Of a stretch of DNA of 64,000 bases, positions 52,781 to 64,000 are shown one piece after another; position 1 is the first letter of the stretch, and each line of letters starts with the position of its first letter. The DNA is taken from assembly GCF_058153355.1 (NCBI RefSeq), contig NZ_CM177019.1; one strand, written 5' to 3'. Both the position numbers and the translations under genes were made by a program. Under the pieces are notes generated by a model. That model did not search any database. It had not been told where the DNA came from and worked only from the letters and a program-made list of their open reading frames with translations.

Positions 52781-52944
52781 AACAAACATTTCTCAACGTC
52801 TACTAAAGTCCATCAAACCCACGAGTATCAAGCCTTCCAGCCATTTTCATAGTTTATTAACGTCTACTCACAACTACCAGAATCTACACACAGAAGTGTA
52901 TAGTAATGCGTATAGGACAAAATTTATTTTTTGGAGCTATACAC

Positions 52945-54309
52945 ATGCTGCTTTCAGACCTTGCCATCAGGCGCGCGAAGCCGAAAGAAAAGGCTTATAC
53001 ACTCAATGACGGTAACGGGCTTTCGTTGCTCATTGAGCCGAACGGTTCGAAAGGGTGGCGACTGCGCTACAGGTTTGCAGGAAAGCCCAAAATGTTGTCG
53101 TTGGGTGTGTACCCTGATGTGTCTCTGTCTGATGCCAGGGCGGCAAGGGATGAGGCTAAAAGGCTTCTTGCTGGTGGTATAAATCCAAGTGAGGCCAGAA
53201 AAGCCCAAAAGCGAGAACAGGCGAGCAAATTTGGCAATACTTTTGAGGGTATCGCTCGCGAATGGTACGAAAAGCGGATCGACAGGTGGTCATCGTCATA
53301 CGCCGAGGAAATGATCGAGACGTTTGAAAAAGACGTTTTTCCGTACATTGGCGGTAGGCCGATCGCAGAAATTAAGCCGATGGAATTGCTGGCGGTTCTT
53401 TCCCGTCTTAATGACCGTGGTGCGACTGAAAAATTGCGTAAGGTTCGCCAGCGATGTGGCGAGGTGTTCCGGTACGCAATCATCACCGGACGCGCCGAAT
53501 ATAATCCAGCCCCTGACCTGGTGAGCGCATTTGCTCCACATAAAAAAGAGCATTACGCCTGTTTGAAGGCCGATGAACTGCCGGAATTTTTCCGCGTTTT
53601 TAATACGTACACCGGAAGCCAGATCGTCAAACTGGCAATGCGGCTATTAATTCTGACAGGTGTCAGACCCGGGGAATTACGGCAGGCAGAATGGCGGGAG
53701 ATCGATTTTGATAATCGTTTGTGGGAAGTGCCTAAAGAACGAATGAAGATGCGCCGTCCGCATTGCGTGCCATTACCAGAACAGGCGATAAAAATACTGG
53801 AGCAGTTAAAAAACATGACAGGTCAGTATCAGTTTATTTTCCCCGGTCGTATTCACCACAGTAAACCAATGAGTGAAATGGCAATGAATGTGCTCATTCG
53901 TCGTATTGGCTACGCCGGGCGCGTTACTGGTCATGGATTCCGGCACACCATGAGCACCATTTTGCATGAGCAGGGCTATAACACCGCGTGGATAGAGACA
54001 CAGCTTGCGCACGCCGATAAAAACTCAATTCGTGGCACATACAACCATGCGCAATATCTGGATGGCAGACGCGAAATGCTCCAGTGGTATGCCGACTATA
54101 TGGATTCGCTCGAGCATGGCGGAAATGTGGTGCATGGTGAGTTCGGAAAATGCGGGGGACTGGTTGAGTATACAGTAGTAGACTTTGAGCGACTAAAAAC
54201 GGCTGTGTCTAGGGTCGCTCCTGAAAACCCGTACACCTCTGCGGGCTGGCACAGCCACTATGGTAGAGGGCGCGAGGTGACGCGTGATCGATATTGCCGA
54301 ATTACTTAA
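52945..54309 (+). CDS. int: tyrosine-type site-specific integrase, P4-like (tRNA-associated)
   Basis: ORF 52906..54309; start assigned to ATG 52945 with GGAG 8 nt upstream (MLLSDLAIRRAKPKEKAYTLNDGNGLSLLIEPNGSKGWRLRYRF...); C-terminal catalytic residues (HGFRHTMST, Y in GTYNHAQY). Confidence 0.9.
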   Translation: MLLSDLAIRRAKPKEKAYTLNDGNGLSLLIEPNGSKGWRLRYRFAGKPKMLSLGVYPDVSLSDARAARDEAKRLLAGGINPSEARKAQKREQASKFGNTFEGIAREWYEKRIDRWSSSYAEEMIETFEKDVFPYIGGRPIAEIKPMELLAVLSRLNDRGATEKLRKVRQRCGEVFRYAIITGRAEYNPAPDLVSAFAPHKKEHYACLKADELPEFFRVFNTYTGSQIVKLAMRLLILTGVRPGELRQAEWREIDFDNRLWEVPKERMKMRRPHCVPLPEQAIKILEQLKNMTGQYQFIFPGRIHHSKPMSEMAMNVLIRRIGYAGRVTGHGFRHTMSTILHEQGYNTAWIETQLAHADKNSIRGTYNHAQYLDGRREMLQWYADYMDSLEHGGNVVHGEFGKCGGLVEYTVVDFERLKTAVSRVAPENPYTSAGWHSHYGRGREVTRDRYCRIT

Positions 54310-54604
54310 CGCAGAAAAGAATAATTTCATTAGCCTGAGAGAGTTAATAGAGCGTATTAAATTATCTCAACCGAAAGCTACTACATCCCAGATAGTAAGT
54401 TTTCTTTATCAGACGCGGCAGAAATTACCCGAATGGGTTAAGTGGGATGAAATGATGGGCATTGAGCAAACATCGGAGAATCCTTTTGATGGGGATTGGT
54501 CTTTATCAGAGGTTCTTGAAGGCATTTTAAGACTAGGCTTTGTGCCAGAGGTTGAAGATTCTGTACCCCTCGCTATCGATGATAGCGACGATATTCCGTA
54601 TTGA
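54284..54604 (+). CDS. hypothetical protein (106 aa, AT-rich gene; GTG start, overlaps int 3' end)
   Basis: ORF with SD-like gagg upstream of GTG 54284; no recognisable domain; start uncertain. Confidence 0.45.
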   Translation: MIDIAELLNAEKNNFISLRELIERIKLSQPKATTSQIVSFLYQTRQKLPEWVKWDEMMGIEQTSENPFDGDWSLSEVLEGILRLGFVPEVEDSVPLAIDDSDDIPY

Positions 54605-54623
54605 TGAAGACTTAAGGTGAATT

Positions 54624-62189: not shown

Positions 62190-62194
62190 GACAG

Positions 62195-63483
62195 ATGCTG
62201 GCCAACGTGGGATATTTAACGCGGGTTAACATCGTTGTCAGAGCCGCATGGGTGAGCTGTTGCTACACCCCGGTATTTCCACCACGGAGGCCAGCATGAA
62301 CAACAATAACACATTGTACGTCGGGTTAGATGTTCACAAAGAATCGATTACTGTCGCTTATGCTATCAATTCAGAACCTGTTGAACTGATGGGTAAAATT
62401 GGCACATCACCTACTGATATTCAGAATCTTTGTAAACGTCTCAGGTCAAAGTCATCGCAGGTCAGTATCGTTTATGAAGCGGGGCCCTGTGGTTATGGAC
62501 TTTATCGTCGGCTGGTGAAATCCGGTTTTGACTGCATGGTCTGCGCCCCCTCACTTATCCCGAAAAAACCGGGGGAGCGGGTTAAAACCGATCGCCGTGA
62601 TGCCATCAGACTTGTGCGTTCACTGCGTGCAGGAGATCTTTCTGCTGTCTACGTACCCGGCATTGAAGATGAGGCATTCCGGGATTTGGCCCGGGCATGG
62701 GCATCTGCCCGCGATGATTTACGGCATGCAAGGCAACGTCTGAAATCGTTTCTTCTGGTTCATGGGGTCCATTATGTCGGGCGAGCAGATTGGGGCCCTG
62801 CACACCGACGCTGGCTCAGCAAATACTCATTCGAAAGTCCCTGGCGACAATTAGCTTTTGACGAACACCGTCGTACAATAGAAGACCGGCAGGCACAATG
62901 TGAACGGCTGGAATCCGCCCTGAAGGAGGCCGTTACCGAATGGAGGCTGTATCCGGTAGTAGAGGCGCTGCAAGCCATGCGAGGGATTCAGTTTATTACT
63001 GCGGTTGGATTAATTTCTGAACTGGGTGATCTGACCCGTTTTGAACATCCACGACAACTGATGTCATGGTTTGGTATCACGCCATCAGAATATTCATCGG
63101 GTGGAAGCAGACATCAGGGCAGCATTACCAAAGCCGGAAACAGCTATGCCAGAAAGCTATTGGTCGAGGCAGCGTGGAGTTACCGTCATCCGGCACGCAT
63201 CAGTCCGGCAATACAAAAAAGGCAGGAAAATTTACCCCGCCCCGTCATTGACAGAGCATGGGATGCTCAACTCAGGCTTTGTAAGAGGTATCGAAAACTT
63301 CAGGCCAAAGGAAAGAATGTCAATATTACAATTGTTGCTGTTGCACGTGAGCTGGCGGGTTTTATCTGGGATATGGGCCGAATAGCAATGTCTGTCGCAC
63401 AACAACCACAATGTCACAAATAAAAAATGAGAATAACCAGTTCCCTGAAGGCGACGTAGCCCGGTACAAGAGTAACCCACGTT
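62195..63483 (+). mobile_element. second IS110-family element (distinct from IS621); boundaries approximate
   Basis: DEDD recombinase ORF flanked by an inverted 9-10 bp motif cAACGTGGG (62209-62217, and its reverse complement at 63471-63480); sits between the truncated primase and the tandem repeat. Confidence 0.55.
62296..63423 (+). CDS. IS110-family DEDD recombinase/transposase
   Basis: ORF 62248..63423; likely start MNNNNTLYVGLDVHKESITVAYA (DEDD N-terminal motif LDVHK), 375 aa; C-terminal Tnp domain. Confidence 0.85.
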   Translation: MNNNNTLYVGLDVHKESITVAYAINSEPVELMGKIGTSPTDIQNLCKRLRSKSSQVSIVYEAGPCGYGLYRRLVKSGFDCMVCAPSLIPKKPGERVKTDRRDAIRLVRSLRAGDLSAVYVPGIEDEAFRDLARAWASARDDLRHARQRLKSFLLVHGVHYVGRADWGPAHRRWLSKYSFESPWRQLAFDEHRRTIEDRQAQCERLESALKEAVTEWRLYPVVEALQAMRGIQFITAVGLISELGDLTRFEHPRQLMSWFGITPSEYSSGGSRHQGSITKAGNSYARKLLVEAAWSYRHPARISPAIQKRQENLPRPVIDRAWDAQLRLCKRYRKLQAKGKNVNITIVAVARELAGFIWDMGRIAMSVAQQPQCHK

Positions 63484-64000
63484 AGCGCTTGGCGACGGCG
63501 GAACAAAGCTGATTCGCGACGTAAGAAAGTGGCAGGCTCATATGACGGACCTCTGTAATGCGGTATCCAACCCGCGAATATCAGCGTGATTCACCGTCGG
63601 ATTTACTGCTACGTCGCCCTCAGGGAATTAAACCTAAAAAGAAAATCGTCAAAATTAGAGATTCCGGTTTGACACGGAAAGTCATATCAGCGCTTGGCGA
63701 CGGCGGAACAAAGCTGATTCGCGACGTAAGAAAGTGGCAGGCTCATATGACGGACCTCTGTAATGCGGTATCCAACCCGCGAATATCAGCGTGATTCACC
63801 GTCGGATTTACTGCTACGTCGCCCTCAGGGAATTAAACCTAAAAAGAAAATCGTCAAAATTAGAGATTCCGGTTTGACACGGAAAGTCATATCAGCGCTT
63901 GGCGACGGCGGAACAAAGCTGATTCGCGACGTAAGAAAGTGGCAGGCTCATATGACGGACCTCTGTAATGCGGTATCCAACCCGCGAATATCAGCGTGAT
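63484..64000. repeat. perfect tandem direct repeat, 205-bp unit, at least 2.5 copies, continuing to the window edge
   Basis: Unit starts at 63484, 63689 and 63894 (agcgcttggcgacggcggaacaaagctgattcgcgacg...); copies are identical as far as the window extends. Confidence 0.9.

Follow-up and report, generated by a model that had tools for sequence, protein, structure and literature searches.

What kind of element lies directly 3' of glyU, the tRNA-Gly(CCC) gene, in the 64,000-nucleotide stretch of contig NZ_CM177019.1 (RefSeq assembly GCF_058153355.1) analysed here (hereafter the window), and has it taken the place of ETT2 (E. coli type III secretion system 2), the locus that follows this tRNA as a remnant in E. 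coli K-12? A first-pass annotation, made by reading the sequence without database searches, had described positions 52781 to 64000 as a degraded, P4-like or PICI-like (phage-inducible chromosomal island-like) integrative island that replaces ETT2, is damaged by two insertion sequences (ISs) and might carry anti-phage cargo. The assignment to a degraded integrative island of this kind at tRNA-Gly(CCC) is supported by the analyses described below. The region very probably represents the left two-thirds (the integration, regulatory and replication zones) of a degraded satellite of the Gram-negative PICI type, which carries an integrase, an immunity switch and a primase of the P4 family and sits at the 3' end of glyU. 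As such, it belongs to a class that has already been described, of which it is an ordinary, decaying example.

Gene content and order at glyU

Gram-negative PICIs have been divided into four zones, Integration, Bro, Replication and Late, with matches to the C4 and isrK RNAs already noted within the Bro zone (PMC10111431), and both PICIs and P4-like satellites have been given formal definitions in SatelliteFinder (PMC10085698). By content, the copy in the window holds three of the five PICI core components used by SatelliteFinder. Each of the elements initially listed at glyU (an integrase, alpA, an antirepressor-like gene, a chain of small open reading frames (ORFs) and a P4-alpha-like primase) was found to be present with strong statistical support. 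A P4-type tyrosine integrase that has lost its stop codon (52945..54309, plus strand; PHROG integrase, E = 2.6e-78; Pfam Arm-DNA-bind_3, Phage_int_M and Phage_integrase) reads inward from a position 165 bp from glyU and, in a full-length alignment, shares 39% identity with P4 Int (E = 2e-97). Downstream of it, in the same orientation, lies alpA, coding for an excisionase/transcriptional regulator (55288..55485, plus strand; PF05930, HTH_17; PHROG E = 1.5e-11), and then a gene of the AntA/AntB family, part of the Bro network (55564..56364, plus strand; PF08346 AntA; PHROG anti-repressor, E = 8.7e-39). Comparison of this antA gene with its counterpart in one intact relative, the glyU island of E. 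coli ETEC1738 (L001), gave 27 synonymous and 31 non-synonymous differing codons, as under purifying selection.

The replication zone includes a 66-aa ORF of the phrog_340 family that overlaps its neighbours (60648..60848, plus strand; PHROG E = 5e-19), a 99-aa DUF4222 ORF (60853..61152, plus strand; PF13973; phrog_285, E = 3.8e-30), and a primase-helicase fragment (61149..62168, plus strand) that retains the N-terminal ~340 of 584 amino acids, with matches to D5_N (PF08706), TIGR01613 (E = 8e-12) and the P4-family primase C-terminal/DUF5906 domain. The intact 584-aa primase of a close relative (L012) shows 97.8% nucleotide identity to this fragment and itself aligns with P4 alpha at 40.3% identity, the match covering aa 141-573.

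The same gene order is found in intact ~14-kb islands at glyU that are bounded by 19-bp att repeats. In the ETEC1738 island, the late zone codes for prohead-protease-like, small-terminase-like and PerC proteins, and related islands at the proL/yejM site carry genes for a lambda-type capsid E protein (cap_E) and a decoration protein (HDPD); tail or lysis genes were not found in these relatives.

Integration site and the ETT2 neighbourhood

The integration target, glyU, occupies 52707..52780 on the plus strand (ARAGORN; Rfam tRNA, 69.6 bits). In the ETEC1738 relative, a 19-bp direct repeat, TTCCCTTCGCCCGCTCCAA, which is identical to the 3' end of the tRNA, bounds an island of ~14.06 kb between attL and attR (12164-12182 and 26221-26239). 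The corresponding attL core in the window, which comprises the last 18 nt of the tRNA and one further nucleotide (52763..52781), is present in one copy with one mismatch to the 19-bp repeat, placing the island junction inside the tRNA (52763-52781) and not at position 52781, as first described. No second copy of the core was found in the window when up to three mismatches were allowed, and attR lies outside it, together with the right flank of this copy of the island. From its relatives, attR would be expected to read TTCCCTTCGCC(C)GCTCCAA, followed by TTTATCTTC.

In K-12 the 19-bp core occurs once, as an empty attB, and ygeQ and the ETT2 remnant come immediately after glyU; that ETT2 follows this tRNA had been stated in the first-pass annotation and is borne out by the K-12 sequence. 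Right of attR in ETEC1738 lies the K-12 attB flank, and then ygeQ (GH15) and the ETT2 genes; strain SA31-1 (L002) has the same arrangement. Because ygeQ and ETT2 follow attR in these E. coli relatives and attB is empty in K-12, the island is an insertion beside ETT2, between glyU and ETT2. The proposal that it replaces ETT2 is therefore rejected for the relatives, in which attR and the start of ygeQ are retained. The comparison with other glyU islands that had been called for bears out the island itself (the same gene order, and att repeats as boundaries in relatives) and not the replacement of ETT2.

Among the relatives whose right flank can be read, the closest (L012/L032; 97.6-97.8% identical) shares with the window both the same tRNA variant and the same pair of 106-aa and 147-aa ORFs described below. 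After its intact 584-aa primase come genes for SSB, ProQ and PerC, a different IS110 element, a TerL-nuclease fragment, and a SocA_Panacea gene with a 145-aa partner, followed by attR (12208-12225 in L032) and 680 bp of ygeQ. An IS3-family element (L032 12991-14250) then joins this 680-bp ygeQ stump to a truncated yqeG, the whole ETT2 region having been deleted. As read from these junctions, the loss of ETT2 in L012/L032 is a separate deletion outside attR and not an effect of the island. The SocA_Panacea-domain gene and its 145-aa partner (L032 11126-12048) form a toxin-antitoxin-like pair just inside attR; PADLOC did not recognise this pair.

Position 52772 of glyU is a T in the window, versus C in K-12 and most relatives. 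This variant lies inside the attL core, where it creates a G5-U68 wobble pair of the acceptor stem, and is shared only by the closest relatives of the island (L003, L011, L012 and L017), as expected if the element supplies the 3' end of the tRNA. Left of the tRNA, xdhABC, ygeV and actS are 98.6-99.1% identical to E. coli. When 5,426 complete E. coli genomes were searched for the island region at a coverage of at least 80%, none contained it, which points to a host lineage of E. coli/Shigella level that falls outside this collection. The core-genome part of the window also holds Rfam matches to naRNA4 (a nucleoid-associated RNA derived from repetitive extragenic palindromes (REP), on both strands) and to ES036, at 8030-8107 and 3170-3212, which are ordinary E. 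coli features.

Three features of the island were absent from the first-pass annotation: a regulatory core made up of the isrK and C4 RNAs and a kil/Icd-like ORF within a long stop-free frame, an int-alpA RNA motif, and the loss of the integrase stop codon at 54157. The int-alpA RNA motif (Rfam RF02996; 54202..54269, plus strand; 45.5 bits against a gathering score of 35.8) is found at the same position in L001, L002, L014 and L015, and is likely to form the 5' leader of the genes downstream. These begin with a 106-aa ORF (54284..54604, plus strand), whose N-terminus aligns with fused homologues of 250 aa, and a 147-aa ORF with its own Shine-Dalgarno sequence (54624..55067, plus strand), whose product has a coiled coil and, at its C-terminus, a conserved domain (ERPILL..YRDDDPLYLAIEIRNREWANYDPENDRATRGNQ...ACPIKR). 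Neither ORF has a match in PHROG, PADLOC, NCBIfam or Pfam; all homologues found for the pair are annotated as hypothetical, and searches with AlphaFold models were uninformative. Many islands of Enterobacterales have a member of this family between int and alpA, either as a single protein of ~250 aa or as one of ~145-150 aa, with a strongly conserved C-terminal domain and variable N-terminal modules, and by alignment the 106-aa ORF corresponds to the N-terminal module that is fused in other islands. The two-gene form is stable, being found in at least 20 contigs and always at glyU. The pair is not foreign cargo. Between the 147-aa ORF and alpA, a repeat search revealed an array (55071..55220) in which a 12-13-bp palindrome, TACCCTnAGGGTA, occurs 4-5 times, a candidate operator-like element upstream of alpA.

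Immunity region and long open frame

Between antA and the small ORFs of the replication zone lies a region in which two genes on the minus strand face an RNA-based immunity module on the plus strand. The first gene of the minus-strand operon codes for a small regulator of the YlcI/YnfO family (57019..57198; NCBIfam NF041551, 62 bits against a cut-off of 30; phrog_949, E = 1e-22), and the second for a 68-aa protein of phrog_21027 (56755..56961; PHROG E = 1.7e-29) that is a called gene in the NCBI assembly of one relative (L017). Three direct repeats of GTGGCTGACA (57220..57299; repeat search and promoter scan) extend over a promoter-like site between the divergent operons, TTGACG-17-TAGTAT at 57260-57288, which is a match to the consensus only. 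The initial description of a minus-strand regulator with a divergent promoter is upheld as far as the gene and its promoter-like site are concerned. Its assignment to the ribbon-helix-helix fold is not supported: Pfam gave no match, and the evidence extends to membership of the YlcI/YnfO family only.

Two structured RNAs follow on the plus strand. The first, an isrK or P4 seqA-like RNA (57506..57583; Rfam RF01394, 68.8 bits, E = 2.6e-13), carries the first set of C4 targets and also gives a match to c4-a1b1 of 32 bits, which is below the gathering score; in our scans it is preceded by a promoter-like site (57470-57499) and ended by an intrinsic terminator (57563-57584). The second is a C4 or P4-CI-like antisense immunity RNA (57646..57733), which matches the full Rfam model (RF01695, 79.9 bits, E = 9.7e-15). 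The immunity region as a whole shows 75.9% nucleotide identity to the cI region of P4. Next comes a 62-aa kil/Icd-like ORF (57788..57976, plus strand; NCBIfam phage_ICD_like, 69 bits against a cut-off of 25; phrog_6196, E = 6.5e-29), which opens with MATT..., as does P4 kil, and is the first translated gene after the immunity RNA, with a Shine-Dalgarno sequence, GAAGGAGG, at 57773-57780. A loop of the C4 RNA (TCCTTCAGA; hairpin loop UCCUUCAGA) is complementary over 9 nt to positions 57769-57777, which cover the kil Shine-Dalgarno sequence, and the hairpin loop is also complementary to 57547-57554 within isrK. A second single-stranded segment of C4 (ACGCCAA/GGUUACGC) has matches at 57531-57537, 57738-57744 and 57756-57763. 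This layout of two sites and two targets is that of P1 c4 and P4 CI. The target-bearing leader, the C4 RNA and the target that covers the ribosome-binding site of the kil/Icd-like ORF are all nested within a longer ORF, as in immunity systems of the P4/P1 type.

By analogy with P4, these features suggest how the element may be controlled. While the element is quiescent, a short transcript would arise from a constitutive promoter immediately before isrK, and the C4/CI-like RNA would pair, through its two single-stranded segments, with the two sets of targets in the isrK leader and at the kil Shine-Dalgarno sequence. Translation of kil would then be blocked, leading to termination before the small ORFs and primase, and to an absence of replication. 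A helper phage may switch on the alpA/antA transcript, in which case ribosomes would pass from antA into a long frame resembling P4 eta; their translation through the target sites would prevent termination, and the primase operon would be expressed. Int and AlpA would excise the element, and late-zone genes, lying beyond the window, would hijack the capsids of the helper.

The long frame in question, the analogue of P4 eta, is a stop-free run of 539 codons (56357..57976, plus strand; from the ORF list), whose residues 381-487, corresponding to the translated RNA region, match Pfam Phage_ASH. It starts 8 nt before the antA stop codon, spans the two genes of the minus strand as well as isrK and C4, and finishes as kil; over its final 192 aa it shares 39% identity with the P4 eta ORF. 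The P4 version is smaller, being a 214-aa ORF with isrK and C4 inside that likewise ends in kil. Counted between its flanking stops, the frame is 547 codons long in the window and 217 in P4, with lengths of 454, 655, 284 and 488 in four relatives. All of these frames open inside the plus-strand gene that precedes them (antA, a DUF4222 ORF, alpA or ORF88), in its last 10-60 nt, and close at the kil/Icd stop. The recurrence of such equivalents in P4 and in four relatives led us to reject the idea that the frame is a chance ORF.

At the same time, we found no support for a conserved protein encoded by this frame. Over 56365-57049 it is free of stops, both in the window and in all aligned relatives, with 0-18 stops in the other frames, and no frame in this interval has an excess of synonymous changes: the ratios of synonymous to non-synonymous differences, drawn from small numbers, were 18:54, 8:29 and 1:11, which is no better than in the wrong frames (27:31 in the antA control). 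Translation of P4 eta reportedly prevents immunity-dependent termination, as Forti et al. are said to have described in J Bacteriol in 1999. By analogy, we tentatively suggest, as a reading somewhat short of an even chance, that the frame may be a translated bridge, kept free of stops only to carry ribosomes from the alpA/antA transcript to the targets of the CI RNA and so to suppress termination, which in PICIs would have been stretched up to three-fold over minus-strand genes. If this were true, one strand would code for small proteins (YlcI/YnfO and phrog_21027), while the other would serve as a stop-free translation track that is indifferent to its sequence. A conserved, sequence-indifferent open frame that extends the eta principle of P4 over antisense genes would be the only aspect of this locus that is even mildly novel.

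The immunity module varies among relatives. The ETEC1738 island is without the isrK/C4 segment (at 16972-16977), and an in-frame join keeps its long ORF open; in SA31-1 the frame is broken in two; and another relative (L027) carries two RNAs of the C4 family (6151-6238 and 6628-6716).

Insertions in the window copy and relation to known satellites

The two IS insertions proposed to have damaged the island were both located, one by an element of the IS66 family (58001-60468) and one by ISSso6 (62169-63688). The first element, of 2468 bp, carries tnpA, tnpB and tnpC on the plus strand (58001..60468; PHROG transposases, up to E = 2e-277; annotated homologues) and is flanked by an 8-bp target duplication, CCTTAACC (57993-58000 and 60469-60476). 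It splits a 69-aa ORF of phrog_340 that starts at the kil stop codon, leaving a 5' stub (57969..58000, plus strand) and a 3' part (60477..60655, plus strand, included in the ORF list as 60521-60655; phrog_340, E = 3e-13) that reads on from the duplication at 60469-60476. The exact ends of the element are given by a Logan short-read contig (L003) with the same island free of IS66, in which the halves are contiguous and the ORF is intact (9298-9507). This contig differs from the window at one position in 7,000 bases, namely at the integrase stop, where a T-to-G change at 54157 has converted TGA to GGA. The normal end of the integrase at 54159 is thereby passed, adding 50 codons and giving a protein of 454 aa. 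The same extended form is found in SRR31441161, which has all three lesions and belongs to the same lineage as the window.

ISSso6, an element of 1520 bp (IS110 family, IS1111 type; 62169..63688, plus strand), is 100% identical to an annotated copy on plasmid NZ_CP065616.1, and is listed among the ISs of S. sonnei 53G (PMC7373316), so that the host may, but need not, be a Shigella. Its transposase matches the NCBIfam IS110 RNA-guided transposase (E = 1.9e-81). Elements of the IS1111 type have a DEDD transposase, subterminal repeats of 11-13 bp with 7-bp and 3-bp extensions, and a long non-coding region downstream of tnp, and insert site-specifically without duplication of the target (PMC11187229). 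ISSso6 has the characters of this type: its 13-bp subterminal inverted repeats, ATGACTTTCCGTG (62176-62188 and 63673-63685), are extended by 7 bp on the left and 3 bp on the right, and it lies in the primase gene at GGTA^AGCGC with no target duplication. Its ends were set using the flanks of five copies, the uninterrupted primase of L001 and the published end rules for IS1111. The primase-helicase is cut just after its Walker A motif, GDGGSGKST, and its remainder is expected to start with AGCGC(T/C)GA(G/A)ATGACATCGCTTGATG.

ISSso6 exposes two side features, a 7-bp target and a variable number of copies of its tail. All five mapped insertion sites read GTA^AGCG (junctions at 62165-62172 and 63686-63693 in the window, and in L005-L008). 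The sequence GTAAGCG likewise forms the tip of the terminal repeats of IS66-family elements, at whose ends several copies of ISSso6 are located; the IS66 element of the window starts with GTAAGCG (58001) and ends with CGCTTAC (60468), forming two unoccupied ISSso6 targets. The 265-bp non-coding tail of ISSso6 folds strongly (z = -4.15), as expected for a seekRNA region. Beyond the element, extra tandem copies of its last 205 bp (63689..64000, plus strand; TRF) form an array over 63484-64000 of at least 2.5 copies at 100% identity, which is cut by the end of the window. Elsewhere there are one (an E. coli plasmid) and two or four such units (other assemblies; L006 10132-10746, L007-L010). The 205-bp unit begins at an internal GTT|AGCG, one base from the target GTA|AGCG, and the structured non-coding region (63439-63628) starts upstream of the unit, with only a part of it contained in each extra unit. 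A nested intermediate, with one ISSso6 inside another, was rejected as the source of the tail repeats, the predicted junction not being found in the 5,426 E. coli genomes. Circles formed from the tail only have been reported for the ssr9 module of ISPpu9 (PMC12288879).

The junction between the primase and ISSso6 is also found in PICIs at the proL site in several assemblies. From 61873 onward (61873-63899), the window is 99.3% identical to a PICI at proL/yejM (L008 8316-10342, L023, L027), the high identity covering the last ~300 bp of the primase fragment and ISSso6, with only 88% identity in the preceding 1 kb. This pattern suggests either an exchange between two PICIs, by gene conversion or rearrangement, or repeated RNA-guided insertion at the primase site.

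Taken together, IS66 parts kil from the replication genes, ISSso6 cuts the primase-helicase and the integrase has lost its stop codon. Because these three lesions break the circuit, the island is most likely a fixed remnant that cannot be mobilised, although expression of its immunity RNA and small regulators may continue. One might instead argue that the satellite still functions, either because its ISs are tolerated or because a second PICI of the same genome makes up in trans for what has been lost. This copy does retain Int, alpA, antA, the immunity RNAs and attL in an intact or nearly intact form, and related genomes harbour a second PICI at proL/yejM with a closely related primase. Nevertheless, everything after the Walker A motif of the primase-helicase is missing, IS66 uncouples the primase from its promoters, the integrase stop is lost, and the proL-site PICIs that we have seen carry the same ISSso6 disruption, making continued function extremely unlikely. 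The expectation of anti-phage cargo was likewise not borne out. When PADLOC was applied to all ORFs of the window and to the right-end cargo of a relative, no known defence gene and nothing above noise was recovered, the sole match being a weak one (E = 7e-9) between the C-terminus of AntA and the candidate PDC-S22.

Several points weigh against reading the region as a PICI-type satellite with a P4-type switch. Its late zone and attR lie beyond the window, so that no hijacking gene is seen in this copy, and a helper phage is not among our findings. The regulatory model has been transferred from P4; the circuit is not uniform in the family, the long frame being split in SA31-1 and isrK and C4 being absent from ETEC1738; and the synonymous/non-synonymous test draws on few differences. 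What remains visible in the window, integration, regulation and replication genes without a packaging gene, might also be expected of a generic integrative island or of a cryptic prophage remnant that is independent of any helper, particularly as P4-type integrases and alpA are common to many islands linked to tRNAs. This we consider very unlikely, as the gene order is that of intact 14-kb elements with satellite late genes and without tail or lysis genes, and matches the published four-zone layout of PICIs, with an RNA immunity of phage type and a P4-family primase in addition. A strict P4-like satellite, which would parasitise P2-type helpers, carry epsilon, sid, delta and psu, and show no more than its left operon here, would account for the homology of Int, the alpha-like primase, the CI and seqA RNAs and eta/kil to P4 and for their P4 left-operon order. 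Yet the marker families of P4 (phrog_10016/3688 for epsilon, phrog_6165 for sid, phrog_603 for delta and phrog_6366 for psu) have no match among the ORFs of the window or in the late zone of ETEC1738, and the ORF after kil is unrelated to P4 epsilon (BLASTP E = 0.2). In addition, the relatives carry AntA, SSB, ProQ, PerC and protease-like or capsid genes instead, and the N-terminal domain of the primase (D5_N) is unlike that of P4 alpha, the match being confined to aa 141-573. Of the seven genes in the P4-like core of SatelliteFinder, Int, alpA and the alpha primase are present, and epsilon and psu-delta-sid are unmatched in the window, beyond whose end the late zone of this copy lies. Because the epsilon, sid, delta and psu families are unmatched, membership of the P4-like class fails under this definition, and a strict P4-like satellite is very unlikely.

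The locus is accordingly best annotated as an inactivated PICI-type satellite at glyU, neither related to ETT2 nor a defence island. It illustrates how such elements become fixed in IS-rich lineages of the Escherichia/Shigella kind, which is of modest general value, and it provides a clean example of a P4-type RNA switch (seqA/isrK, CI/C4 and kil within eta) in a PICI backbone.

Compared with immI of P1/P7, the island likewise has a C4-family RNA, with a pair of targets upstream and a pair downstream over the ribosome-binding site of an Icd-like ORF, and an antirepressor-family gene nearby; it differs in that antA lies upstream of the RNA and not downstream of icd, and in that the genes controlled are those of replication, as in P4. 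With P4 itself (NC_001609) it shares the order of an alpA-like gene, an eta frame with seqA (isrK) and CI (C4) that ends in kil, small ORFs and an alpha-type primase. Unlike P4, it is without epsilon, sid, delta and psu, it has in addition AntA and a divergent cassette of two minus-strand genes, and its eta-like frame, of 539 codons versus ~200-217, overlaps antisense genes; the att site of the island is glyU. In overall design the island resembles the Gram-negative PICIs of the EcCICFT073 type, from which the window copy differs in having been inactivated by IS66, ISSso6 and the loss of the int stop. Like them, it combines an inward-reading integrase at a tRNA att site with a co-oriented alpA, AntA, C4 and isrK in the Bro zone, and a DUF4222 ORF with a D5_N primase, and its intact relatives, at ~14 kb, carry capsid, protease, terS-like and PerC late genes, as PICIs do.

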